Below, one piece after another: positions 1,273-13,632 of a stretch of 27,260 nt of DNA. A program made the position numbers and the translations under genes. Numbering within the stretch: the first letter of the stretch is position 1; every line of letters starts with the position of its first letter. The notes below the pieces were generated by a model. That model made no database searches. It was not told where the DNA came from and worked only from the letters and a program-made list of their open reading frames with translations. The DNA lies in IMG/VR virus record IMGVR_UViG_3300035135_002236, positions 1 to 27,260 of that record; one strand, written 5' to 3'. Origin of the DNA: a virus (taxonomy: Duplodnaviria; Caudoviricetes).

Positions 1273-4200
1273 ATGCCTTCAATTCAAACCACCCTTGGTT
1301 ACAACGCTCCGCTCAAGGCAAGAAAAAAAGAAGACGATGACCGTGGAGATTTTTCTCGCGGATTTGCCGCAGGCGTAGACCAGACTCAGGCGCTTGGTGG
1401 GGGTCTGAAGGCGTGGCTTGGCTCCGTCATGGGCGACGAGGAGATGGTCGAGTCCGGGCTGGATTACTACCAAGAGCAAATGGCTGAGGCAGCTAGCAAT
1501 GCCGGAGAGGTCATGCGTATCGAAGACATCGAAGGCATGGGTTCGCTTGCGGATTACATCCAATATCAAGCAGGTGCATTTCTTCCTAGCCTAGCGACCA
1601 CCGTGGCAGGTGGTGGTATTGGCGGATTCGTCGCAAAAAAAGCGGCGGAGAAAAAAATCAAAAGCACCGTAGCAGAACGGGCAAAAGACTTCGCAGAAAA
1701 GCGTGTGAAGCAAGATGTACAAAAAGCCAAGCGCAAAGAGTTAGAGCGTCGATACATACGAAGAGCTGGTGACGCAGCAGTCAAAAACGCCAGAAGAAAA
1801 GGTCAGGCGATTGGTGCCATTGGCACTGGCTCAGCCATGTTTACTGGCGAAACTACCGGCGCAATCTACGACGAGACAGGAGAAATCTCGCCCGGAGTAG
1901 CGCTTGGCGCAGGTATCCTGGGCGGTTCGCTCGATGCGCTTGTTGGACTGCGGGCATTGCGAAAGATCTTACCTGAGGGACGGTACAGACAAGCCGCAGA
2001 TGACATCGGCGAAGAAATCTCCGGCAATCCAACTCGCTTCGATCAAGTGTTTAGTGCGTTAAAGAAGAGCGAACTCGGCAAGAGTGCTCCGATTGAAGGC
2101 GTCACTGAGGCGATGCAGGAGTATGTTCAGGAAGTAGCTATCAAGTACGTTGATGGCAACTACTCCGACTTGGCTGGCGCAATGGCAGAGGCTGTCACCC
2201 AAGAGGGTGCGCTTTCTCTGTATACGAATGCTGCGGCAGCAGGTGCGGTTGGTGGTGCGGTAGCGGGTGGCACAGCGGATGTGGGTGGTGCAATCACCAA
2301 CAGAATGAGACCAGCTCGACCAGAGCCTAGAAAGATCACTATCCCAGATGAGCCAGACCCAGAGTCAACTCCTGATCAAGAGCCTGATTCCGACGCACCA
2401 CAGCCAGAAGCTGCACCGGCTCCTGAGCCAGAACCACCCGTTTCGGCAGAGGAGCAGATACGACGCAACCTAGAAGCTCGTGAGCGCATTCGCGAATTGT
2501 TCGAGCAACAGCAGAATGGAGAGCTGGATCTAGGCGAGCCTGTGCTCGGCGACACTAAGATGGAGGAGCTAGAAGGTACTCAGGTCGAGTATCAGGGGGT
2601 CAGAGGCTTCCTCAAGAAGACAGATCAGGGCTACTTCGTTGTCACTCAGGATGAAGACATCTTGGTTGAAGCGGGCGAGACAGGCAGGACAGCTAATTCG
2701 CTTGGAGTAAGACCAGCCGAGGGTGAGGTAGAGGTCGAGTTCGATAATGACGCCACATACGATGGAGAGACATCTACCATTACGATGCGTGGCAAGAAGT
2801 ACACGTATAAGACAGCTAACACCAACGAAGAAGGCGAAGTCGTATCACTGACTGCTACAGATGAGTCAGGCAAAGACATCACGATTAGACAGCCTGAGCT
2901 GGTCGAGCGCATACAAAGACTGAAGGCTGAGTCAGAGCAGCAGGTCAAGCCGCAAGATGTCGTAAGACAGCCAATGCTTGCGATGGACGATCTGCCCGTT
3001 CCGGTACAACGACAGTTCATGCTCGATGCTATCGAGGCTGGTGAGACCTCCATGCCTGAACAGGTCACTCGTGAAGAGGCGATCTCCAAGGTCAACAAGA
3101 TCCCAGATGCGGACCCCAACCAGCTTACCCTCGACATCGAGAACACGGCTGAGATGGCGATGACGCAGTTTACTTCGTCTGAATCGCAGTTCACTGGAGA
3201 GTACGACGACACTCGCTTTGCTTCCGGTCCTTGGACCTCCGTCAACCGAACAGATCCTCTGGGGACACCTTTAGCTGAGGGGTCAAAGACAGCTCTGGAG
3301 CGTCATAACAATTTGGCGGGTAAAGAAATCGAAAGGTTAGGGACAACTGACACGTATATCCCTGAGGCGCTTGACCCTGAAAATCCTTTCCCTCAGTTCG
3401 AGGCTGACTACGAGCATAAGACCCCGTTCCTAAGCTCAAAGAAAATTTCGGATATGCCGGAGGCTGATCGAGATACATTTCAAACCGCACTTACTGATGC
3501 TCTGTCTGCCGGTTTGCCTCCACGAGTCCTTAACTATGTAGACTCCTTTGGTCTTTACAATCGGTCGGAGCAAAGGCGCGGTGGTGTTCTAGGTTTTTAT
3601 GTGCCCCTCTCGCGTCACATTGCGATTGATATGGAGGACCTTAACGGAGAACCGGGAGTCGGTCGCAACACCATCGTTCACGAGCTAGGTCACGCACTGG
3701 ATTATGGTGAGCGTATTACCTTTAACGATCCGAACTGGGATGTAGAGTTTTCTCAGAAAGAAAAATATCAGCCCTTGATTCTCGAGATGAGCGAGATTAT
3801 GGGCGAGGCATACGATGCCTACACTAGCGGCGGAACGCTTGGCACTTTCTTCCGATATCCGTTTGCGTCAGCTTACGACGCATTCATGCAAGCAAACAAA
3901 AAGCCATTATCTGTCAAGCAGCAGAGCATCGATGATGTCATGAGCTTTTTGAAGAAAGAAGTGTTCGCACAGTCCTTTGCTCTCTATGTAGGCAATCCTA
4001 AGATGCTGGCAGAGAGCATGCCTAAGATGTACGATTACATGAATGAGCTTGCGAACAAGGAGGCAAGTGATGTCCAAACGAGTAATGAGGGAGATGTCCA
4101 GCCCATCTCTGAGTTCGACTCTCAACCAATACTACGAGAAGTTCGAACACCTGCCGCCAGCAGAGATGCTGAGGTCGGCGACAACGTCGGAGCTGGACAA

Positions 4201-7095
4201 GATGGCGGAACTGGCACTGTTCAAGAACAAGCCAGTGAAGGAGTGGGCGGCACCCAGACAGAAGACGGGGACGGTGGAGGATCTGCTGCTGTAGAACCGG
4301 CAGTCCTTGTCCCACCACCACGTAGCGCTCGCACAGCAGAGCCAACACCAGCGGAGCCAGAGACACAGGCTACTGAAGAACAGGCTCCCGCTGAACCCAC
4401 GCCAGAACCAGAAGACACACCAGCCCCACAGGAGCCAGAGCCTCGATCTGAAGAAGAAGAGCAGCTCCTCAACGAGGCAGTTCGAGAAGAAAACAAATCT
4501 AAGTTTGCTCGCGTCAAGACCTTCCTAAGACGCCAGCTTGCGCCGGGCGGCTTATTACCTGAGTCAGCATTCAAGCTGAAGATCGAGCGTGACTCAGAGC
4601 TGGGCGCTATCGAGATTGATATTGCAAGCTTGCTCGGCGAGTTTGATAAGGCTGTTAAGGAAGTCTACGGGAGCAACCCTCCTGATGATGTTGTAGAGAA
4701 CCTCAACTCAGCCCTGCAAAACATCGACGAGATTGACAAGATGGGCGTCAATGGTCGAGTCAAGGACTCGATCGTCGCCATGCGAGCTTACCTTGATAAT
4801 ATGTCGGTTGAGTATGCTCAGATTGTTTACGACGACGCAGTTAAGGCACTGGGGGAAGGCAAGACTGAGAGCGCGGTTGCCAAAGTCGATCTACTCAAGA
4901 CAATCGTTGGTAACTTGGGCAAGTACGTCCACCGATCTTATCGCGCATTCGATGACGAGAACTGGGCAAAAAATGTGCCAGACGACGTACTCAATGCAGC
5001 CAGAAAATACTTAGAGAATCGCGGTTCAGACAACCCAGAGTTAGTAATTAATGAGCTGCTAAAAGACGGCACTGCCTACGACTCTATGGAGTCAATGATC
5101 AAGGAGTCGATGCTCGGTGCCAAAGACCTATCCATCCTAAAGCAGCGAAAGGATATCGCGCCAGAGATACGCGCTCTGCTTGGTGAGTACACAGACGCAC
5201 GGGTCAACTTCGGCAAGTCTGCTACCAAAATGTCCCGGCTTCTGTTCAACGATCGTTTCCTGCGAAAGATCAAAGAGGACGGCATGGGTGTCTACCTGTT
5301 CGACAGAGCTGACGCTCCGGCAGAGGCATTTACTACCTTTGCGCCAGACGGATCTTCAGCTATGGCTCCACTGTCTGGACTCAAGACCACACCAGAAATA
5401 CATCAGGCGTTCAAAGATGCGCTCGACAAAGAGCAGATGTCTGACTGGTATCGCACGGTGGTGCAATACAACGGCATGGTGAAGTTTGGTAAGACCATTC
5501 TCGCTCCAACCACCATGTCTCGAAACTATATCTCAGCTTCATTGTTCGCAGTGATGAACGGTCATTTCAACATGGCAAAGGCTCGTGAGGCTTGGTCATC
5601 AAAGTCAGCAATCTTTAAAAACGAAGGGGACAAGCTGGCGTACGTCCGAAGGCTCAAGCAGCTTGGCGTGGTCTATGACGCACCATACGCTGGGGAGCTG
5701 ATGAAGCTTCTGGAGGAAAGTCGCTTCGAGGCGATGCAGGACAGCGACATAGTCAAGAAGATACCCGGCGGTGAAGCTGTTACCGGCAAGGCTAAATCGT
5801 TCCTAGACTTCATGACGAAGCTGTATCAGTACGGTGATGACTTCTGGAAGATCATTGGCTTCGAGAACGAGATCGACATCCTGATGGAGAACAAGGGTCT
5901 CTCTCGGGAGCAAGCTGAGCCACTAGCGGCAGAAAGAATCCGCAACACTTATCCAACGTACTCCATGGTCGGCAAGGCTGGTACATGGTTACGACGTTTC
6001 CCGCTGGCAGGTACATTCGTATCGTTCCCGGCAGAAATCATCAGAACGCAATTCAATGTCATGCGATACCTCAAGCAGGAAATGGATGACCCTGCGATGA
6101 AAGACGTAGTTCCTCGCCGGATTGCCGGTGCCGCCATGGCGTCTGCTGGAGCTTACGCATTGACCGCAGCTCTCCGCGACATGCTTGATGTTGATGACGA
6201 TGAAGATGAAGCGGTTCGACTCCTGGCACCCCCATGGTCGGCGAACTCAAACATTGCTTACATTGGTCGCAAAGACGGCAACCTTCGCTATATCGACCTG
6301 TCGGCACTCGACCCATACTCATACTTCAAGAGACCCATAAATGCACTGCTTCGCGACCAACCGTTTGACGATGCCGTGATACAAGCCGGGCAAGAATTAA
6401 TGACTCCGTTCTTGGGAGAAGACATTGCGTTCGGTGCAATCACCGATATCTGGCAAAACGAAAAAGATACCGGGGCGCAGGTATATAACCCAGCAGACAC
6501 CCCAGCTAACCAGCTCGCTGATATCACAGGTCACTTGTTTCAGAAGCTACAACCGGGAGCTGTCGGCAACCTCAATCGTATGGTTGACGCATTGCAGGGA
6601 GACATCAGTAAATCAGGCAGACGATACGAGGTCGATGATGAACTCGCGGCATTATTTGGATTCCGAGCAAGCACAATCGACCCTAAGGTTTCTCTGTACT
6701 ACAGAGCATACGAGTTCAACGAAGCAAAGCGTCGATCGACAGATCTGCTCAGATCGACCTTCAGGGCTGTCAACGAGGTATCTGATGCGGAGCTAAGGTC
6801 AGCCTTCCAGAACAGCTCACAAGCCCGCAGAGAGGCGTTTGAGCAGATGATCAAGATTGTTGAGGCAACGAGACGTTCCGGTCTCACTGACTCTCAAATA
6901 CAAAAGGTTCTACGAAGTAACGGCATCACACTGAAGGACGCGAGGGCGTTACTCAGCGGAGACGTTACTAAGTACAACATCACGGATTCGACCCTGAAGA
7001 GCAGCATCAAGCGAGCCGACTTCCTCGTTGGTGAGTCTACTGCTGCTGAATTCCAGCGCAGGTTCCGATACCTGCAATCGCTAGAGGAAGAGTGA
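1273..7095 (+). CDS. Large internal virion/ejection (polyvalent-type) protein with zincin-like metallopeptidase motif
   Basis: 1940-aa ORF with GGAG RBS; Gly/Ala-rich N-terminal helices, two Pro/Glu-rich linkers, HELGH (3679-3693) followed by KKEVFAQSF; last large gene of the structural operon. Confidence 0.7.
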   Translation: MPSIQTTLGYNAPLKARKKEDDDRGDFSRGFAAGVDQTQALGGGLKAWLGSVMGDEEMVESGLDYYQEQMAEAASNAGEVMRIEDIEGMGSLADYIQYQAGAFLPSLATTVAGGGIGGFVAKKAAEKKIKSTVAERAKDFAEKRVKQDVQKAKRKELERRYIRRAGDAAVKNARRKGQAIGAIGTGSAMFTGETTGAIYDETGEISPGVALGAGILGGSLDALVGLRALRKILPEGRYRQAADDIGEEISGNPTRFDQVFSALKKSELGKSAPIEGVTEAMQEYVQEVAIKYVDGNYSDLAGAMAEAVTQEGALSLYTNAAAAGAVGGAVAGGTADVGGAITNRMRPARPEPRKITIPDEPDPESTPDQEPDSDAPQPEAAPAPEPEPPVSAEEQIRRNLEARERIRELFEQQQNGELDLGEPVLGDTKMEELEGTQVEYQGVRGFLKKTDQGYFVVTQDEDILVEAGETGRTANSLGVRPAEGEVEVEFDNDATYDGETSTITMRGKKYTYKTANTNEEGEVVSLTATDESGKDITIRQPELVERIQRLKAESEQQVKPQDVVRQPMLAMDDLPVPVQRQFMLDAIEAGETSMPEQVTREEAISKVNKIPDADPNQLTLDIENTAEMAMTQFTSSESQFTGEYDDTRFASGPWTSVNRTDPLGTPLAEGSKTALERHNNLAGKEIERLGTTDTYIPEALDPENPFPQFEADYEHKTPFLSSKKISDMPEADRDTFQTALTDALSAGLPPRVLNYVDSFGLYNRSEQRRGGVLGFYVPLSRHIAIDMEDLNGEPGVGRNTIVHELGHALDYGERITFNDPNWDVEFSQKEKYQPLILEMSEIMGEAYDAYTSGGTLGTFFRYPFASAYDAFMQANKKPLSVKQQSIDDVMSFLKKEVFAQSFALYVGNPKMLAESMPKMYDYMNELANKEASDVQTSNEGDVQPISEFDSQPILREVRTPAASRDAEVGDNVGAGQDGGTGTVQEQASEGVGGTQTEDGDGGGSAAVEPAVLVPPPRSARTAEPTPAEPETQATEEQAPAEPTPEPEDTPAPQEPEPRSEEEEQLLNEAVREENKSKFARVKTFLRRQLAPGGLLPESAFKLKIERDSELGAIEIDIASLLGEFDKAVKEVYGSNPPDDVVENLNSALQNIDEIDKMGVNGRVKDSIVAMRAYLDNMSVEYAQIVYDDAVKALGEGKTESAVAKVDLLKTIVGNLGKYVHRSYRAFDDENWAKNVPDDVLNAARKYLENRGSDNPELVINELLKDGTAYDSMESMIKESMLGAKDLSILKQRKDIAPEIRALLGEYTDARVNFGKSATKMSRLLFNDRFLRKIKEDGMGVYLFDRADAPAEAFTTFAPDGSSAMAPLSGLKTTPEIHQAFKDALDKEQMSDWYRTVVQYNGMVKFGKTILAPTTMSRNYISASLFAVMNGHFNMAKAREAWSSKSAIFKNEGDKLAYVRRLKQLGVVYDAPYAGELMKLLEESRFEAMQDSDIVKKIPGGEAVTGKAKSFLDFMTKLYQYGDDFWKIIGFENEIDILMENKGLSREQAEPLAAERIRNTYPTYSMVGKAGTWLRRFPLAGTFVSFPAEIIRTQFNVMRYLKQEMDDPAMKDVVPRRIAGAAMASAGAYALTAALRDMLDVDDDEDEAVRLLAPPWSANSNIAYIGRKDGNLRYIDLSALDPYSYFKRPINALLRDQPFDDAVIQAGQELMTPFLGEDIAFGAITDIWQNEKDTGAQVYNPADTPANQLADITGHLFQKLQPGAVGNLNRMVDALQGDISKSGRRYEVDDELAALFGFRASTIDPKVSLYYRAYEFNEAKRRSTDLLRSTFRAVNEVSDAELRSAFQNSSQARREAFEQMIKIVEATRRSGLTDSQIQKVLRSNGITLKDARALLSGDVTKYNITDSTLKSSIKRADFLVGESTAAEFQRRFRYLQSLEEE

Positions 7096-7096
7096 T

Positions 7097-7186
7097 ATGC
7101 ACGGCAAAAAATGTGCCAAGTGTGGCAAAGCAAAGCGTAAATCTTGTCCCAAGTGCAAGGGTAAAGGCACCAAGAAATCTTACTGA
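7097..7186 (+). CDS. 29-aa basic CxxC-x7-CxxC peptide
   Basis: MHGKKCAKCGKAKRKSCPKCKGKGTKKSY; ATG 1 nt after the previous stop, GAGG upstream; below the ORF-track cutoff. Confidence 0.6.
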   Translation: MHGKKCAKCGKAKRKSCPKCKGKGTKKSY

Positions 7187-7380
7187 GCAGTGTCTTCTAT
7201 GTGGTCGATTCTTATGACCGGAGTCGGGTAGTCAGTAAACAAGCTTGAGCCGTAAGTTCGGTAGTTTCGAATCCACCTACTCACAACACATTCGCTCATC
7301 GAATAGATGTATGCGATGTCTCCGTAGGTCTTTCCCATGTTACGGAGATCAGTCATTTCTTGCACTTCACGCTCTGTCAC
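7180..7380 (-). CDS. Small helix-turn-helix protein
   Basis: LRNMGKTYGDIAYIYSMSECVVSRWI fits an HTH pattern; start overlaps the stop of the upstream gene. Confidence 0.65.
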   Translation of the reverse strand: MTEREVQEMTDLRNMGKTYGDIAYIYSMSECVVSRWIRNYRTYGSSLFTDYPTPVIRIDHIEDTAQ

Positions 7381-7661
7381 TTGATCACCCGCAGGTGACC
7401 GTAGGTGCGCTTTTCTCGAACCGGTTCTGGTGCATCGAGACCGCCGAACTGGGGGCTTGCCGAAACGAGATTTAGCAGCTCCACCATGTCCCGCTTGTCC
7501 TGCTGAACCGGGATGACATTGAACTGAATTAGCGCAAGATCCTTTCCCTGCTCCTTGAACAATTCGACCGCATCGTATCGGTCTCTTGCACTGTTATAGA
7601 ACGTCACCTGAGGTGGGCATTCGTTGTAATCGGTGATGCGAAAAATGTTCCAAGTTTCCAT
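7377..7661 (-). CDS. Hypothetical protein
   Basis: 94-aa ORF with strong AGGAGG RBS. Confidence 0.75.
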   Translation of the reverse strand: METWNIFRITDYNECPPQVTFYNSARDRYDAVELFKEQGKDLALIQFNVIPVQQDKRDMVELLNLVSASPQFGGLDAPEPVREKRTYGHLRVIK

Positions 7662-7777
7662 CTCAACCTCCTGTAAAAGGGGGAGGCTCTCCGTTAATCT
7701 AGGGGTCGGTGGAGAGCCGTCCCAAACTACTCAAGGTTGGAATCCATGTATCGTGATAGCGTTGCGAGCGCCTCTCG

Positions 7778-7790
7778 TAAGTGATTGATT
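7778..7790 (-). promoter_or_regulatory. IHF-binding consensus, left attP arm
   Basis: Minus strand AATCAAtcacTTA matches WATCAANNNNTTR. Confidence 0.7.
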
Positions 7791-7810
7791 TTATTAGAGA
7801 TGCGTATAGA

Positions 7811-7859
7811 AACCTTGCCAAGGTTGAGGTCGCGAGTTCGAACCTCGTTTCCCGCTCCA
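7811..7859 (+). mobile_element. attP: attP core: 3' part of tRNA-Gly(GCC)
   Basis: AACCTTGCCAAGGTTGAGGTCGCGAGTTCGAACCTCGTTTCCCGCTCCA contains the GCC anticodon arm, T-arm and 3' acceptor strand with CCA; the 5' half of the tRNA is absent; about 120 bp from the integrase stop. Confidence 0.92.
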
Positions 7860-7878
7860 TTTCCAACATCTCCAGTAA

Positions 7879-7891
7879 TATCAATGGTTTA
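7879..7891 (+). promoter_or_regulatory. IHF-binding consensus, right attP arm
   Basis: TATCAAtggtTTA matches WATCAANNNNTTR. Confidence 0.7.
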
Positions 7892-7920
7892 CCATCACTT
7901 TACTGGGTTCCAACCTGTAT

Positions 7921-7960
7921 GAAAGGGAATAGGCTAGTTCGCTGACTACCATGTTTCCCT
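7921..7960 (-). terminator. Hairpin after the integrase gene, possible terminator
   Basis: Minus strand AGGGAA...GGTAGT-loop-ACTAGCC...TTCCCT followed by only TTC; the T tract is weak. Confidence 0.35.
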
Positions 7961-7982
7961 CCGGCTTCAAGGTTGCACTCCA

Positions 7983-8876
7983 TCATTTCTGACGCAATAC
8001 ACCTTGCATACGGTTAGCCACTTCGCGTTTCCGCTCCGTGTTCAGGTGGGTATATCTTGCCACCGAATTTAGTGAAGCCCAGTTACCCATCTCCACTAAC
8101 TCGACGGCTTGAGTACCCGCCTTAATGTGGAACGAAGCATAGGAATGTCGGAGCGTGTGGAACGTAGTTCCCGCTGGCAACCCAGCTATCTTTACCGCTC
8201 GTCTCCATGTCTTGTTGACCACACTTTTCTGCGACAACGGTTCCCCGTTATCTTGGAAGAAAACGTACTCGATATCCGACACCCTTCGGCTCGTATGCTC
8301 GAGGTCCTCTTTCATCCGCATCCTGCGTTTGAGCAGTGCCTGACAATCCCTTGTCAGTGACATTGACACTGGCTTGTTGTTCTTCATCTCGGCTGCGGAG
8401 AACTCCAGCACAGAGAATCCATGCTTGACGTGTCTCCACTTGAGCGTCCGAACATTGTTGTTACGCAACCCAGTTAGGAATGCGAACTCAGCCATGTCTG
8501 CTCTCAGAGGATCCAGCGCTCGAATCAGTCTTCCGACCTCATTCGGCTCCAGATAGTTTGTCCTCCTATTCTCTTCTAAAGCTTTGATCTTTGGTGGGAC
8601 GAACTTCATTTCGAGTTCCTCCACCGCGAAGTTCAGCATTGCCCTGAGGTAGTTTAGGTAACAGTTGACGGTGCTGTTCTTCAGCTTTCTTTCCTGCTGA
8701 AGCGATCCCACCAGAACCCGAATGTCGAGAGTTGTTATCTCGTCGAGCTGGCGGTCTCCCCACTCATCAACCATTTCGCTAATTACGCGCTTGGCTGTGC
8801 CGTTCCTCTCGATCCCTCGCCGACTACAAGTGGTGAGGTAAATTTTCGAAAGCTTTTCAAAAGTACAAAGTCCCAT
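7983..8876 (-). CDS. int: Tyrosine recombinase/integrase
   Basis: Catalytic motifs TGLR, K (MKN), HTLRH, GNW, RY; start placed at MGLCTFE because of a GGAG RBS 7 nt upstream; the listed start at 8978 lies in a terminator. Confidence 0.93.
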   Translation of the reverse strand: MGLCTFEKLSKIYLTTCSRRGIERNGTAKRVISEMVDEWGDRQLDEITTLDIRVLVGSLQQERKLKNSTVNCYLNYLRAMLNFAVEELEMKFVPPKIKALEENRRTNYLEPNEVGRLIRALDPLRADMAEFAFLTGLRNNNVRTLKWRHVKHGFSVLEFSAAEMKNNKPVSMSLTRDCQALLKRRMRMKEDLEHTSRRVSDIEYVFFQDNGEPLSQKSVVNKTWRRAVKIAGLPAGTTFHTLRHSYASFHIKAGTQAVELVEMGNWASLNSVARYTHLNTERKREVANRMQGVLRQK

Positions 8877-8919
8877 AGTTCTACTCCATGAATCAGGAGA
8901 GGCGCTCGGAACTTTTTGG

Positions 8920-8948
8920 ACTATATTGTTTTGTGTCTTCATTGTCAT
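8920..8948 (-). promoter_or_regulatory. Putative sigma70 promoter for int
   Basis: ATGACA-17 nt-TATAGT just downstream of a terminator. Confidence 0.55.
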
Positions 8949-8954
8949 CCCTGT

Positions 8955-8976
8955 AAAAAAGCCCCCCGTAGGGGGC
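8955..8976 (-). terminator. Intrinsic terminator of the recombination operon
   Basis: GCCCCC-TACG-GGGGGC-TTTTTT. Confidence 0.9.
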
Positions 8977-9104
8977 AAGCCACACTAAGAGTCCAGCTCG
9001 TAACGTGAGCCACCCGGAATTAGTTGAGGCGTTTTGGACACTGGTGCCTCGAGCCAGCTTTCACGGGAGAGGAAATCCCTGTCCGTTCTCATGGAGATAG
9101 AGAA
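8955..9104 (-). ncRNA. Putative structured 3'-UTR RNA/sRNA
   Basis: 150 nt largely covered by stems: UUCUC/GAGAA hairpin, three-way junction GGACA/UGUCC, GGGA/UCCC, CUGG/CCAG, pseudoknot GAGGC/GCCUC, GGCUC/GAGCU hairpin, terminator. Confidence 0.55.
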
Positions 9105-9347
9105 TTAGTTGATCAGCTCACCTTCAGCGATCTCAGGCTCAGCCTCTTCCTCTTGTGTAGGAAGCAGCTTCTGAAGATCGATGTTGATTACCTCTTGACC
9201 GATGCGAGCCATCTCGATAATCGTGCCCATCACAGCCATGGCGTTCTGACCGTTCTGTGCGCGGACCAAAAGCTCCTTGCATGGTTGACTGAGATCATCA
9301 ACGTTGTAGGTCTGACCGTTGATTTGGATTTGCTGCTGTTCATTCAT
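9105..9347 (-). CDS. Hypothetical protein (80 aa, acidic tail)
   Basis: Start MNEQQQ has an AAGGAG RBS and an ATGA overlap with the upstream stop. Confidence 0.75.
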   Translation of the reverse strand: MNEQQQIQINGQTYNVDDLSQPCKELLVRAQNGQNAMAVMGTIIEMARIGQEVINIDLQKLLPTQEEEAEPEIAEGELIN

Positions 9348-9739
9348 CGAGATTTTCTCCTTGCGTTGTCTCGAATAAGTCGGTAGTTGCGCGGTGCGTT
9401 GAGTGCTAGTTCCGCTTGGGGTGTGTGTCGATCCGTGAATGAATGCCCTCTGCCACATACTTCGCAGTACGGTTCAGCCTGGGCGATCCTGTCGCGGACA
9501 CCAACCATCTCGATGGACAGGTCTTCACCGAAGTGAAGCGGGTCGTCGCCAACTTGGATGACATGTTCCTCGACACCCAAGCCAGTTTTGATATTGACGA
9601 TCCCTTCCTGTCGATCGCGATGATTCCTGACTCCGCGAATCCATATACGATGGTCGAAGGATGAGTTTGGACGCTTATCATCTAAATCGTACCCTCCGTA
9701 AACCACCGTATTTACAGCTCTGGTGATTCGCAGTCCCAT
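9344..9739 (-). CDS. CsrA/RsmA-like RNA-binding protein, tandem arrangement with CxxC insert
   Basis: MGLRITRAVNTVVYGG resembles CsrA MLILTRRVGETLMIG; VGDDPLHFGEDLSIEMVGVR...QAELALNAPRNYRLIR resembles VGETLMIGDEVTVTVLGVK..QVRIGVNAPKEVSVHR. Confidence 0.62.
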   Translation of the reverse strand: MGLRITRAVNTVVYGGYDLDDKRPNSSFDHRIWIRGVRNHRDRQEGIVNIKTGLGVEEHVIQVGDDPLHFGEDLSIEMVGVRDRIAQAEPYCEVCGRGHSFTDRHTPQAELALNAPRNYRLIRDNARRKSR

Positions 9740-9751
9740 AAATGGTGTCCC

Positions 9752-10081
9752 TTAAAATGGCAGGTCGTCCTCTAGGACGGGCTTAGAGGTTTGCACTACA
9801 CCATCATCGGTCTTTGGCTTTTTCTGCCAGACCCTGAGGGCGAGCTGCTCGTTACCTGCTCGGTTAATTTCCTTGCACACGGTGATGCCAAGAGCCAGAA
9901 GACCAGCATCGGTCTCGACGTGAAGGTTCCCTGAATGTGTCGGGATCTTCATGCCTTGCTCTTCTTTTGACATCTCGTTGTACCAGTCATACTGAGTGAG
10001 ACGTTCATGTTCACGCAGCTTGTCGTCTCGTGACGTAAGCCACGCTTTGCCAGTGTTCGGCTTCGGTTGGAAGTCGCTCAT
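9752..10081 (-). CDS. Putative ssDNA-binding protein
   Basis: Ends in EDDLPF, an SSB-type acidic tail; follows the ERF and exonuclease genes. Confidence 0.65.
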   Translation of the reverse strand: MSDFQPKPNTGKAWLTSRDDKLREHERLTQYDWYNEMSKEEQGMKIPTHSGNLHVETDAGLLALGITVCKEINRAGNEQLALRVWQKKPKTDDGVVQTSKPVLEDDLPF

Positions 10082-11124
10082 TAAATAGCTCCATATTTGA
10101 TGTTGATTTGACGGTTGTTGTTCTCTCGACGAAACGTCTCGGGTGAGCCGCCTCGATCAAGAACCGCCTGATCTCCGCCTAGAAATTCGTAGGCTTTGCG
10201 ATAGTCAATGGTTGGGGTTCGATTGATGAGCTGAACGGTGACCAGTCCGTCTGTTACAGAGCATTGGTATTGGTCAGCGATACTCTTCTTCAGCGCATCG
10301 GATTTCTTTTTGATCGCGGCGATCTCTTCTAGGTCGTCACGGTATGTCTCTTGCAGTTCAGCGAGCCGTCTCTGTAAGAAGCTCAGCTCCTCCATCTCTT
10401 TGGTGGGCTTGACCTTCATCACGTCATCGTGAGCTGGCTTGATGTAATCCTGTCGCAGCTCCTCATCGGCGGCGATAGTTTGAATGTGATCGAACCATGC
10501 TTCGTACAAGCTGATGCGTTGCACCGTTCCGGCGGCGGGTTCCGGCATTAGCTTTCCGGGTACGTTCTCTGTGAGCCAGCCTTTGACTCTATCGACACGC
10601 TCCACCTTTACCTTGGGTGTAGCAGCTTCGTTATCAGCGAGGTAACAAATGAAGTCGCACCAATCTACATCGAGGCACTCCATCTGGAGGTACACCTGCC
10701 ACAGGTACATAGCCTTCTTGTCGTCGAAGATGCTGTACGGCTCTTTGTTGTACTTCGGGTAGGGACACTTGATCTCAATGCACCCTGACAAACCAACCAA
10801 ACCATCGGGACTAGCAGCTATGAAGGGGTACTCTGGATGTACAACCAGACCCGTTTCCTCCACTTCATAACCCCTAAGGTACTCTAGGTAGTCACGAGCA
10901 ACCGGCTCCATAGCAGTTCCATGCTCCATTGCCGGAACGATTTCAAACTCGTTCTCACAACCACAGATGTCGCGTACCTTTTGTCGGACAAACTTTTCCT
11001 TTGTAAGGTGTGGGTGTTTGTCCTCAAGCACCGCGATGGTAGACGCAGTCAGCTTGTTCTTGCGTTCATCCAGCCACTCTTGGCTTCCCTGCTCATGCAC
11101 TGAACTTCTCCTTGAGCCACTCAT
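10081..11124 (-). CDS. YqaJ/lambda-exonuclease family nuclease
   Basis: QGSQEWL..R...LTAS, HG...EP.A, AASPDG, IEIKCP, Y..QV..QM motifs. Confidence 0.9.
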   Translation of the reverse strand: MSGSRRSSVHEQGSQEWLDERKNKLTASTIAVLEDKHPHLTKEKFVRQKVRDICGCENEFEIVPAMEHGTAMEPVARDYLEYLRGYEVEETGLVVHPEYPFIAASPDGLVGLSGCIEIKCPYPKYNKEPYSIFDDKKAMYLWQVYLQMECLDVDWCDFICYLADNEAATPKVKVERVDRVKGWLTENVPGKLMPEPAAGTVQRISLYEAWFDHIQTIAADEELRQDYIKPAHDDVMKVKPTKEMEELSFLQRRLAELQETYRDDLEEIAAIKKKSDALKKSIADQYQCSVTDGLVTVQLINRTPTIDYRKAYEFLGGDQAVLDRGGSPETFRRENNNRQINIKYGAI

Positions 11125-11746
11125 CGAACTTGGCGCGATCAGCCTCTAAACCTCTGGCTCGTAATCCTTTTTCGTACTTGATAAATCGCTTTTTGGCTTC
11201 CGTCGCAGTCTTTGCTTCGACTACCTTGGCTTCACCGAACAACCGATTTTTAATCTCAGTTGGATTGGCTTCTTTCTTAACTGGCTTTGCTACCTCAGGC
11301 TCAGGCACCGGCTCGTAATCGTCGTCGGTGATCTCGTCCTCGAGTGACACTGAGGTCTTGTGCTCGATGGCATCCTTATCACCACCAAGACCTAGCGCCA
11401 GAACCAGAGAGAATCGCTTGGCATAAGTTAAGGCAGCTCCGTACTGCGCCTCACTTGGCTTACTGGGCGGAACCTTAACGATCCCGCCAGACATGCGTCC
11501 GCCGCTCGTGTGGTAGATCACAGTCTCCACAGCCACACCGCCTTGTACAGGATGTGAGATATGATGGGCGAACAAGCCGAGTGAATGTAAAAGAGGTGTG
11601 ACTTCAGTCTTAATGACTTCGTACTTCACGTACTTTCCGAAGGCGGCTTTGTCTTTTGCAGCTAGGATTGTGGCGTCGGTATGCCACTTGAGCATTGCTT
11701 CGAGGAGACCGGGCGTTTGCACGTCCTGAGTCGGAGACATTTCCAT
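11093..11746 (-). CDS. erf: ERF-family ssDNA annealing protein
   Basis: HTSG and QYGAALTYAKRFSL...GL...DKD match the ERF signature; start moved to MEMSPT (11746, or 11740) because the listed start lies inside the promoter. Confidence 0.82.
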   Translation of the reverse strand: MEMSPTQDVQTPGLLEAMLKWHTDATILAAKDKAAFGKYVKYEVIKTEVTPLLHSLGLFAHHISHPVQGGVAVETVIYHTSGGRMSGGIVKVPPSKPSEAQYGAALTYAKRFSLVLALGLGGDKDAIEHKTSVSLEDEITDDDYEPVPEPEVAKPVKKEANPTEIKNRLFGEAKVVEAKTATEAKKRFIKYEKGLRARGLEADRAKFDEWLKEKFSA

Positions 11747-11779
11747 GTTCACTATCCATGTTTTGCATATTGAGATGTG

Positions 11780-11808
11780 AATATGGGCAAAAAAAATCAC
11801 CCTGTCAA
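11780..11808 (-). promoter_or_regulatory. sigma70 promoter of the recombination operon with overlapping inverted repeat
   Basis: TTGACA-17 nt-CATATT; TCACCCT (11797-11803) and AGGGTGA (11825-11831) form an inverted pair around the -35. Confidence 0.75.
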
Positions 11809-11845
11809 CACCAAATGGTGATCGAGGGTGACCTTTTCTGGGTTT

Positions 11846-12373
11846 TTAACCTTGTTTCTTTTTAGACCACGAGATTGAGTCGCTGAACTCTTCGATTACT
11901 GAGAAGTTGTGGCTTGATAACGCATAACCGAATCTAGCCAGGTCGATGCAGAGCCACCAGATACCATCAGCGTACGGCGTCATCTTGCAGTACATCAGTC
12001 TAGGCTTTGGTTCCGCTTCATGTATCAAGGTGACGACCGGCTCGTTGGTTGCCAGCACTGTATCAATGGCTTCTGAAAAACCTTTGTATATGTCTGGGTT
12101 CCTAAAGCGTAGCTGGGTCAGCATGTCCGCTTCTGGATCATAACCGTGTGCCCTTACCGACGCGATGGTGCGTTCATCACGCCACACGGTTTTTAAGTCA
12201 TTGCTGACGGCACCGATTAAGATGCCGTCCTTGAAGTTGAGCAACGGTGAGTTGACCGCAGCACTTTTTAACTTCCTGTTTTTCGGCTCGTCCCCCGACG
12301 CGAGCCTTTTCCACAGCTTATCGAGCCAGTAGGCGTCGTTTCTTAATTCTTTGCCATGTACCTCATGATCCAT
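11846..12373 (-). CDS. Stand-alone PAS-like domain protein
   Basis: FSEAIDTVLATNEPVVT...RLMYCKMTPYADGIWWLCIDL follows the PAS_4 C-terminal pattern; overlaps the repressor gene end by 11 nt. Confidence 0.5.
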   Translation of the reverse strand: MDHEVHGKELRNDAYWLDKLWKRLASGDEPKNRKLKSAAVNSPLLNFKDGILIGAVSNDLKTVWRDERTIASVRAHGYDPEADMLTQLRFRNPDIYKGFSEAIDTVLATNEPVVTLIHEAEPKPRLMYCKMTPYADGIWWLCIDLARFGYALSSHNFSVIEEFSDSISWSKKKQG

Positions 12374-12815
12374 TTACCACACTACCCCCATCATTTTCAT
12401 TTTCACTATTGCTTATTTCGGAACCCAGCTTGGCAAGCATGGCTGTCCCGCTGACTTCATCTTTGTAGGCTAAGAGAGTGAGTCTTGCAAACTGACTAGG
12501 CGTCATTTCAGCGTCGTCCCCGCGCTCAACCGCCTTCAAAAGGCGCAAGCATGCGGCTAATTTTTTTTCGTCTAAAACGTCGCTTTTGTGTTCGACACCG
12601 TAAATCCATTCCATGATGTCGATGTCTAGGTGCTCGGCTACACGCCAAATTTCATCGTGTCCCCGAGGTAGTGCGCCAGATTGCCAGTTAGACACCTGAC
12701 CGTGTGATACCCCGAGGTCACGAGCAAGGTTCTGGGTTTTGCCCCAGTCCCGATAACCCGCCTCGCGGCACTTACGTTCAAAATAAAGAGCGCGTTGCTC
12801 TTTTGAAATTTCCAT
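12363..12815 (-). CDS. XRE-family HTH repressor-like protein
   Basis: QNLARDLGVSHGQVSNWQSGALP...IWRVAEHLDIDIMEWIYG; divergent from the replication operon; no S24 peptidase motifs visible. Confidence 0.85.
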   Translation of the reverse strand: MEISKEQRALYFERKCREAGYRDWGKTQNLARDLGVSHGQVSNWQSGALPRGHDEIWRVAEHLDIDIMEWIYGVEHKSDVLDEKKLAACLRLLKAVERGDDAEMTPSQFARLTLLAYKDEVSGTAMLAKLGSEISNSENENDGGSVVNGS

Positions 12816-12925
12816 TGTCGATCCTTGTTTCCGAGTGTGGAAACCGGAATATACAGATTCAGTTGGGATTTGGAAATCCTGTAATTACATCCAGTGGTTT
12901 CGATTTAAATACCGATTCAACCCTG

Positions 12926-12952
12926 TTGACTTCCCGATTGAGTAGGCATAAT
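12926..12952 (+). promoter_or_regulatory. Putative rightward promoter
   Basis: TTGACT-15 nt-CATAAT; good hexamers but short spacer. Confidence 0.4.
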
Positions 12953-12966
12953 GTGGCTCACTCACC

Positions 12967-13632
12967 ATGGATTTGGGGGCAAGAATGGGTGACACCGCTA
13001 ACGATTTCACGATCGTCCTGAACAAGGTCATGCGTGACAATCGACTAGATGCAAGTGGTCTAGGTCTGCTCTGTTACTTACATCACCTCCCCGAGACATG
13101 GGTCGTCGTACCGTCCCAGTTAGCAGAAAGGTTTGGTTGTAGCCGTAACAAGATTGTTCGTCTCCTCACCACGCTCGCTGAATTAGGTTACGTCGATTGC
13201 AATCAACCCAGAAATCAAGATGGGTCGTTTAGCAAGAGAGTATGGAAAGTGTCCAAAACCGGGGTCCCGGATAAACCGGACGCGGTAAAACGGACACTAC
13301 TAAATACTAATAACTTACAAAAAACTAACCAAGACAAAGAACAAAACCTCACTTGGCGGGAAAAATTCTACGAGCAGTGTCCCACGTTCTGCTCCAAGTC
13401 GTCTTGGAAGCGATGGATCGACTACAAGGCTGAGCGCAACAAAAACCGTCCGTTTAGTCAGCGCACCGTAACGCAATCGAAGAACAAGCTCGAGTCACTA
13501 CACCGTCACGGCTATTCGGCTGACGCAGTTATCGAAGTCACCATCAACAGGAACTGGGTAGGTATCGGTGATCACACCTATAAGACCTACAACCAGTGCA
13601 AGCGGAACGTGGCTGACGAGATGATAATTTAA
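12967..13632 (+). CDS. Replication initiator (winged-HTH N-terminus)
   Basis: RDNRLDASGLGLLCYL...LAERFGCSRNKIVRLLTTLAELGYV; directly upstream of primase-helicase; start may be 12985. Confidence 0.75.
   Translation: MDLGARMGDTANDFTIVLNKVMRDNRLDASGLGLLCYLHHLPETWVVVPSQLAERFGCSRNKIVRLLTTLAELGYVDCNQPRNQDGSFSKRVWKVSKTGVPDKPDAVKRTLLNTNNLQKTNQDKEQNLTWREKFYEQCPTFCSKSSWKRWIDYKAERNKNRPFSQRTVTQSKNKLESLHRHGYSADAVIEVTINRNWVGIGDHTYKTYNQCKRNVADEMII
13251..13350. repeat. Putative iteron/AT-rich origin inside the initiator gene
   Basis: AAAACCGG, CGGATAAACCGGAC and CGGTAAAACGGAC repeats followed by an A-rich, G-poor tract. Confidence 0.5.

Follow-up and report, generated by a model that had tools for sequence, protein, structure and literature searches.

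We analyzed a 27,260-nucleotide stretch of viral DNA (the window) and found that the gene on its minus strand at 9344..9739 encodes a 131-residue protein (P0001) that is a divergent relative of CsrA. Our preferred reading, to which we give a probability of roughly 0.58, is that this protein is a double-length phage CsrA homologue which folds as a single-chain pseudo-dimer, has one RNA site and damps the translation of early genes in its own phage. We place it outside the canonical members because it lacks the size of a CsrA subunit and, searched as a single sequence, has no match to Pfam PF02599.

The open reading frame at 9344..9739 is a real gene because it has an SD-like element (AAGGGA at 9748..9753, minus strand, 9–14 nt 5′ of the start), an ATGA overlap that joins it to the next gene, third codon positions that take most of its differences to three relatives (56 of 81, 47 of 71 and 63 of 90 changes), and full-length relatives (20 close matches, 19 of them full-length at 131 residues, 54–98% identity). 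The JGI annotation of this contig calls the final 54 residues of the protein and misses the rest. A preliminary description of the sequence had put the product at about twice the length of CsrA, and this was confirmed, with CEVC at residues 92–95, H99, H105 and LIR at 121–123. A profile search of 50%-cluster representatives gave 46 matches, and a second round gave 42; three unrelated low-complexity proteins and several fragments among the 46 were excluded, apart from two C-terminal fragments retained in alignments A4 and A6. A6, our working alignment, comprises 86 rows, 48 of them at <70% identity, after P0028 and P0035 were removed as apparently damaged. Viral contigs hold 67 distinct loci of the family, 68 with the window, of which many are near-identical and several end short. 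Its proteins range from 113 to 134 residues and no shorter split forms (30–59 residues) were found. No family member was found in GTDB genomes, where a degenerate-pattern search returned three loci, none belonging to the family, and a search with P0061 gave no relative at E < 0.7 among cultured phages. In the RNA data, the gene is covered by two short contigs of one run at ~2x depth, which is insufficient to show transcription.

The phage that carries the gene is temperate and marine: the window is a 27-kb piece of a temperate tailed-phage genome, from a virus record that is 52% complete, and the habitat-labeled runs containing at least half of the stretch are marine metagenomes (four rows, one study). 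Besides a terminase and portal and a primase-helicase, the window encodes a leftward early block that runs, in order, from an HTH repressor through a 175-aa ORF, ERF, YqaJ, an SSB-like gene, the 131-aa CsrA-like gene, an 80-aa ORF and a tyrosine integrase to an attP-like tRNA fragment. The repressor is CI/Cro-like (12363..12828, minus). The 175-aa ORF (11846–12373, minus) is limited to the closest clade (7 loci) and has no Pfam or PHROG match. ERF, an ssDNA-annealing protein and the first gene of the recombination block (11093..11746, minus; its probable start at 11746 is taken from relatives and the SD), precedes the YqaJ-family exonuclease (10081..11124, minus). The immediate upstream neighbor (9752..10081, minus) has no Pfam or PHROG match; we take its product to be SSB-like from its acidic DDLPF tail and its position, and across loci this slot is filled by at least three sequence clusters. 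Downstream, the conserved 80-aa ORF (9105..9347, minus) is translationally coupled by ATGA and has no assigned family. The spacer between it and the integrase (8940–9105) is structured, with a terminator-like GC hairpin and U-run, and part of it is conserved in loci L001, L004 and L006; a SELEX-like site (10/12) that follows this hairpin near 8954 was dropped because it is absent from L004 and L006. The integrase (7983..8876, minus) probably starts at 8876 rather than at the 8978 of the ORF finder, with its SD, AUGGAG, inside a predicted hairpin. Directly after it lies the attP-like copy of a tRNA 3′ part (7811..7859, plus; Gly from the anticodon, by our reading), to which many tRNA contigs map. 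No Rfam match was found within 7000–13200. The order ERF-YqaJ-SSB-like-[gene]-integrase is constant across the family, with YqaJ in all 68 loci, ERF and the SSB-like gene in 65 each and the integrase in 60.

The relationship to CsrA is evident in sequence profiles of the family. Pfam, PHROG and PDB searches with the single sequence of the 131-aa protein gave nothing relevant, and its resemblance to CsrA rises above chance at the family level, not for the single sequence. Of 33 family members, 19 matched PF02599 at E ≤ 1 (lowest E 1.2e-6), a precomputed PF02599 annotation is present on 10 of the 42 profile matches, and a few relatives already carry an automatic CsrA label in databases. At the profile level there is homology to CsrA at both ends of the protein. 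When the 86-row alignment was compared with 66 CsrA sequences by hhalign, residues 2–20 aligned to CsrA 1–19 (E 6e-5) and residues 65–126 to CsrA 9–47 (E 1e-6, prob 91), while residues 17–72 alone had no match. These alignments uphold the CsrA-like N-terminus (beta1-beta2) and C-terminal half (beta2-beta5) of the preliminary description, as well as its insert between the beta3 and beta4 equivalents, which is 23 residues long. Against the PDB, the family profile found CsrA/RsmE chains in two pieces (residues 2–21 and 108–129, E 0.008–0.024); its PRDM9 zinc-finger matches were rejected, the CxxCG knuckle alone being responsible for them. Distant members start with MLVLTR..G..IYGG and finish with ARLGxxAP.xY..VRDD. 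In the window protein, the beta1-beta2 equivalent, which would be the 'chain A' half of an RNA site, spans residues 2–16 (9692..9736, minus), with T6 and R7 corresponding to T5 and R6 of CsrA. The beta3-beta4-beta5-helix equivalent with its extended beta3-beta4 hairpin spans residues 74–126 (9362..9520, minus), in which Q108 corresponds to Q29, A115-P116 to A36-P37, R123 to R44 and N125 to E46. Between them lie four strands (residues 30–71; 9527..9652, minus) that are predicted to fill the beta3, beta4, beta1 and beta2 places of the partner protomer, the last of which alone matches CsrA in sequence.

It is very probable that the protein has a CsrA-derived single-chain fold. The AlphaFold2 model (pLDDT 89.4, pTM 0.76) has nine core strands (residues 3–8, 12–16, 30–39, 44–52, 55–62, 68–71, 74–87, 103–114 and 120–123) and helices at 24–27 and, C-terminally, at 124–130. 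We propose two predicted sheets, beta5-beta2-beta3′-beta4′-beta1′ and beta2′-beta3-beta4-beta1, an order we infer from the model and from the sheets of RsmA, beta5A-beta2B-beta3B-beta4B-beta1A plus its mirror (PMC3791407, excerpt). With the strands read as beta1 beta2 beta3′ beta4′ beta1′ beta2′ beta3 beta4 beta5, seven neighbor pairs are expected, and in a mean-field coevolution analysis of a shallow alignment (Neff 52) five of the seven ranked within the top 6 of 36 strand pairs. Those five, beta2-beta3′, beta2-beta5, beta4′-beta1′ and beta1-beta4, all antiparallel, and beta2′-beta3, agree with the RsmA sheet order in that excerpt. They include long-range coevolving residues in beta2-beta5 (V13-L121, G15-Y119) and in beta1-beta4 (I5-L111). 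The analysis failed for beta3-beta4, which ranked low, and called beta2′-beta3 and beta3′-beta4′ parallel. The chain of RsmN (4kji_A) was superposed over 53 of 64 residues (rmsd 2.3, 21% identity) across model residues 2–127, at rank 39 and with a Z of 4.1 that is in the noise range of VIA, below unrelated sandwiches. Of the fused pseudo-dimer that had been proposed, the single-chain architecture is therefore supported by the predicted strands, the coevolving pairs and, weakly, this superposition, but a tandem origin is not.

The comparison by AlphaFold and Foldseek that had been put forward as a check gave a divided answer. In BFVD the top match was a phage protein of 114 residues named 'Carbon storage regulator' (E 3.7e-4, TM 0.59/0.67). 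Foldseek found nothing in the PDB at E ≤ 0.001, with no CsrA among the matches listed, and its top rows there (lipocalins and others) were set aside as generic sandwiches. The best VIA matches were other beta-sandwiches, the CcsBA periplasmic domain (Z 9.1, rmsd 2.8, 83 aligned) and class II fusion proteins (Z ≤ 7.7, rmsd 5–7), which we regard, together with DUF1608, as analogues at 8–13% identity without sequence support. These fold libraries consist of single chains and are ill-suited to an intertwined dimer. Approximately 15 viral proteins of 81–201 residues in BFVD match the whole model (prob 1.0, 9–15% identity), which suggests, at the level of predicted structures, that single-chain CsrA-like proteins of phages form a broader superfamily as yet without a name.

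The conserved residues point to an RNA site of the CsrA type. RsmE contacts RNA through Thr5/Arg6 of one chain and, from its partner, Gln29/Arg31/Arg44/Glu46 (PMC4005645, excerpt), and the first and last strands of the family proteins hold exactly this split set: T6 in 65, R7 in 82, Q108 in 57, R/K at position 110 in 55, and R123 and a D/N/E at the E46 position in all 86 rows, as is P116. The R31 equivalent is Glu (E110) in the clade of the window protein, and across the family the H43 equivalent is Ile or another aliphatic residue and the V40 position Tyr, both unlike CsrA. The strand that takes the place of a second beta1 is acidic (D+E 0.20, K+R 0.08, versus 0 and 0.30 in the true beta1) and a second beta5 is absent from the sequence. 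The single intact RNA-binding face that the preliminary description envisaged is thus borne out by the residues, and we think it likely that one RNA site was kept and that the second, as predicted, was lost. Binding of GGA-containing RNA by the protein is judged only a little less likely. Against our preferred reading, one-sited E. coli CsrA represses glgC incompletely (PMC7652899, excerpt).

How the single chain arose is less clear from its sequence. The tandem duplication that had been suggested found no backing there, as the N-terminal and C-terminal halves compared by hhalign gave E 0.2–0.9, with no internal repeat detected, and strands 30–62 have no significant CsrA signal; a tandem origin is nevertheless plausible. 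It is also possible, although we favor it less than not, that one CsrA gained a four-strand insertion from a foreign source between beta2 and beta3 which mimics the partner, with no gene duplication. The missing repeat and the strands that are not CsrA-like agree with such an insertion, as do the rank of the expected CsrA register of residues 30–38 (3 of 50), the short helix after beta2, as in RsmN, and the same insertion point in RsmN. However, CsrA 9–19 (beta2) is matched twice, the sole part of CsrA to be so, and the order of the inserted strands, beta3-beta4-(beta1)-beta2, is the remnant expected from a duplication minus its beta5-helix.

CsrA-type motifs are enriched at the early translation starts of these phages, in counts that come from one phage lineage and from inferred starts. 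In the window, two ACAUGGA motifs lie 13 nt apart at the ERF start (11742..11761, minus), the first in the SD zone and the second over the AUG, within a predicted hairpin, making this a candidate target. Among 33 ERF leaders, 27 have AUGGA over the start, 16 have ACAUGGA and 23 have two ANGGA motifs 11–15 nt apart, of which the first falls in the SD zone and the second overlaps the AUG. The repressor of the window, whose SD zone contains ACAAGGA and whose start is overlapped by AUGGA, is another candidate, and AUGGA is present at 10 of 19 repressor starts. Dual ANGGA motifs were found in 10 of 32 integrase leaders and in none of the SSB-like, family-gene or small-ORF leaders; AUGGA was at 0 of 20 RecT starts of control phages. 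The SELEX consensus is RUACARGGAUGU (PMC3791407, excerpt), and sites over the SD and start codon are a known mode of CsrA repression (PMC7652899, excerpt). ACAnGGA occurs at 44 of 262 early starts in family loci versus 8 of 541 and 22 of 610 in control phage loci, and AUGGA lies over 65 of the 262 distinct starts, as against 34 of 541 near ordinary phage csrA genes. In RecT loci the latter count was 9 of 162 with csrA and 45 of 454 without, with 1 of 22 in lambda and 3 of 31 in D3. Within five contigs and the window, for which a crude gene caller was used, AUGGA was at 28 of 77 early ATG starts versus 8 of 162 elsewhere. Counting by gene family leaves a modest AUGGA excess (12/63, compared with 29/384 at p=0.008 and with 26/263 at p=0.05). 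The non-coding AC that precedes AUGGA and turns it into a SELEX-type ACAnGGA was present in 18 of 65 cases versus 3 of 88 controls, nearly all of them at ERF and the repressor. The motifs track the long CsrA-like family, not CsrA in general, because phages with an ordinary csrA have the 8 of 541. We only tentatively regard the ERF, repressor and integrase starts as targets of the 131-aa protein; a Met-Asp/Glu preference could be the protein constraint behind AUGGA, and host CsrA could be the reader of the motifs.

Several observations concern the leaders themselves. In ERF leaders (11742–11790, minus, in the window; L001–L073) the SD is part of a predicted hairpin in which pairing is maintained despite changes in sequence, and a folding z < -2 was obtained for 15 of 33 of them versus 4 of 29 SSB-like, 2 of 29 family-gene and 1 of 29 YqaJ leaders. 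In integrase leaders (8876–8920, minus, in the window) an anti-SD CUCC or CCUCC often pairs with the SD, and the GGA is paired at >0.8 in 11 of 32. ANGGA in the SD zone is common across genes of the family phages, such as the replication initiator (14 of 16), and its presence in the integrase SD was accordingly rejected as a specific signal. A CsrB-like sponge RNA was not found: the densest 150-nt stretch has 6 ANGGA in the window and 5 in five other contigs.

Under our preferred reading, the 131-aa protein would be made early alongside the recombination genes and would fold without a partner, so that it would not exchange subunits with host CsrA. Its N-terminal beta1 and C-terminal beta5 would form the one RNA site, into which a host CsrA subunit could not swap, and it would bind ANGGA/ACAnGGA at the ERF, repressor and integrase starts and lower their translation, with one molecule per motif or a hook-joined pair. 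The outcome would be feedback on the early operon and on the balance of lysis and lysogeny. Alternatively, the protein may be an anti-Csr decoy that binds host CsrB/RsmZ-type sRNAs, or blocks one of two sites and so prevents bridging by host CsrA, and thereby relieves or rewires control by host CsrA instead of repressing phage genes itself. Plasmid RsmQ binds host sRNAs and rewires its host (PMC9928087, excerpt), full CsrA repression can require both sites (PMC7652899, excerpt), the paired ERF motifs suit a bivalent host CsrA and one relative of the 131-aa protein is recorded in a Gammaproteobacteria MAG. We nonetheless consider a decoy unlikely: no prophage with the gene was found in GTDB genomes, and phages with an ordinary csrA are without such an excess of motifs. 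A repurposed nucleic-acid binder of the recombination module, acting on ssDNA or hairpin DNA with ERF or SSB and having no translational role, would account for the constant place of the gene right behind the SSB-like gene, where just 1 of 71 ordinary phage csrA genes is found. However, the residues conserved are those of the CsrA RNA site and the CsrA-type motifs cluster at translation starts, which makes such a binder very improbable.

A further alternative to one molecule per motif, a zinc-hook dimer, involves the CxxC knuckle (C92, C95; 9455..9466, minus) at the predicted tip of the extended hairpin, for which there is no family-wide second ligand pair. A zinc site of the form CEVC..GH...H had been proposed, and across the family it did not hold up. 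CxxC is present in 56 of 86 rows (30 of 48 non-redundant) and missing from 30, and a clade of 15 rows without insert and CxxC has support of 99/97 in a tree of 46 rows from which two short rows were excluded. H99 is present in 19 of 19 close relatives, yet in 3 of the 30 non-redundant CxxC members, and H105 is replaced by Q/K/N in 6 of 19 close relatives, one of them 98% identical. We therefore rejected a CCHH finger with four conserved ligands family-wide, as the histidines are unconserved and 6 of the 30 have no further Cys/His within the hairpin. The lone CxxC could contribute one half of a Zn site shared between chains, form a disulphide or, with H99/D103, make up a clade-specific site; at lower odds, it may be a fold-optional half metal site that joins two molecules. 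In a zinc-hook dimer, C92/C95 of two molecules would share Zn(Cys)4, and the resulting two-site RNA binder would bridge paired ANGGA motifs in a zinc- or redox-dependent manner. In its favor, CxxC is invariant where present, at the predicted tip, with H30, which is equally kept in members without CxxC, as the only other conserved ligand column; the hairpins with no other Cys/His and the ERF leaders with two motifs 11–15 nt apart are likewise in keeping with it. The Rad50 hook (known from a partial source) is a precedent by analogy only, since it too has a lone CxxC at a hairpin apex, whereas the family protein has no coiled coil. In addition, the insert-less clade still has AUGGA at ERF and integrase starts, and H99 and D103 (18 of 19 close relatives) could complete an intramolecular site in the clade of the window. 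On balance we find the zinc-hook dimer doubtful, and it is decidedly unlikely that a host-insulated one-site CsrA in zinc-hooked pairs reads paired ACAUGGA motifs that cover the SD and start codon of the ERF, repressor and integrase mRNAs. If true, such a pair would act as a translational switch, gated by metal or redox state, in the choice between lysis and lysogeny.

Among known systems, CsrA/RsmA/RsmE (PF02599) resembles the family in its beta1-beta2 and beta2-beta5-helix sequence, its two-sheet sandwich, which is predicted for the family, and the equivalents of L2, T5, R6, G15, Q29, A36, P37 and R44. However, CsrA has ~60 residues, a five-strand subunit and, as a strand-swapped homodimer, two equal sites, whereas the family has 113–134 residues, nine predicted strands from one chain, one beta1/beta5 residue set and a longer beta3-beta4 hairpin that bears CxxC in roughly two of every three members. 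RsmN/RsmF of Pseudomonas aeruginosa (4kji) shares the beta2-beta3 insertion and the supply of beta1 and beta5 of a site by one chain, but it inserts a 16-residue helix and still dimerizes with two sites, while the family's insert has ~55 residues, mostly in strands, which by prediction stand in for the second protomer. RsmM of Pseudomonas phages, plasmid RsmQ and the Vibrio phage CsrA are likewise encoded by mobile elements, in early regions, but each is one canonical CsrA unit; RsmQ heterodimerizes with host Rsm proteins (PMC9928087, excerpt), something that would not be open to a closed single chain. Long CsrA-like proteins of phages listed in BFVD and the ESM Atlas (such as A0A6J5RUQ1, 114 aa) are alike in whole-length predicted fold (TM by target up to 0.81), and the ESM Atlas holds a 410-member cluster of 100-aa proteins, 27% with PF02599; these are database entries only, with 9–15% sequence identity. 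No description of a single-chain CsrA was found in the open full-text literature, subscription journals being largely outside that coverage, and the words 'phage' and 'tandem' are absent from the available part of PMC13443453.

If true, the fold would be a third topology of CsrA beside those of RsmA and RsmN, and a natural one-sited CsrA would be a clean tool for separating single-site binding from bridging, for which R44A heterodimers have served hitherto. The available part of PMC7366521 describes 30 phage-borne CsrA homologues and reports no tested function for them. On the role of such homologues, the family offers a constant operon and a small set of leaders that are candidate targets, and a single protein and a single 40-nt RNA would therefore suffice for a direct test of the question. 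The CsrA homologues of phages F116 and phi297 (L077:3501-3872 and L080:3501-3872) have 123 residues, and since their CsrA match lies in the first 51–53 residues and ends there, they represent another kind of long CsrA, with a C-terminal extension. Among the late genes of the window, the plus-strand gene at 1273–7095 encodes a 1940-aa protein with a weak, sub-threshold Pfam ATLF match at residues 802–926 (E 7e-4), which our guess is probably a virion or ejection protein.
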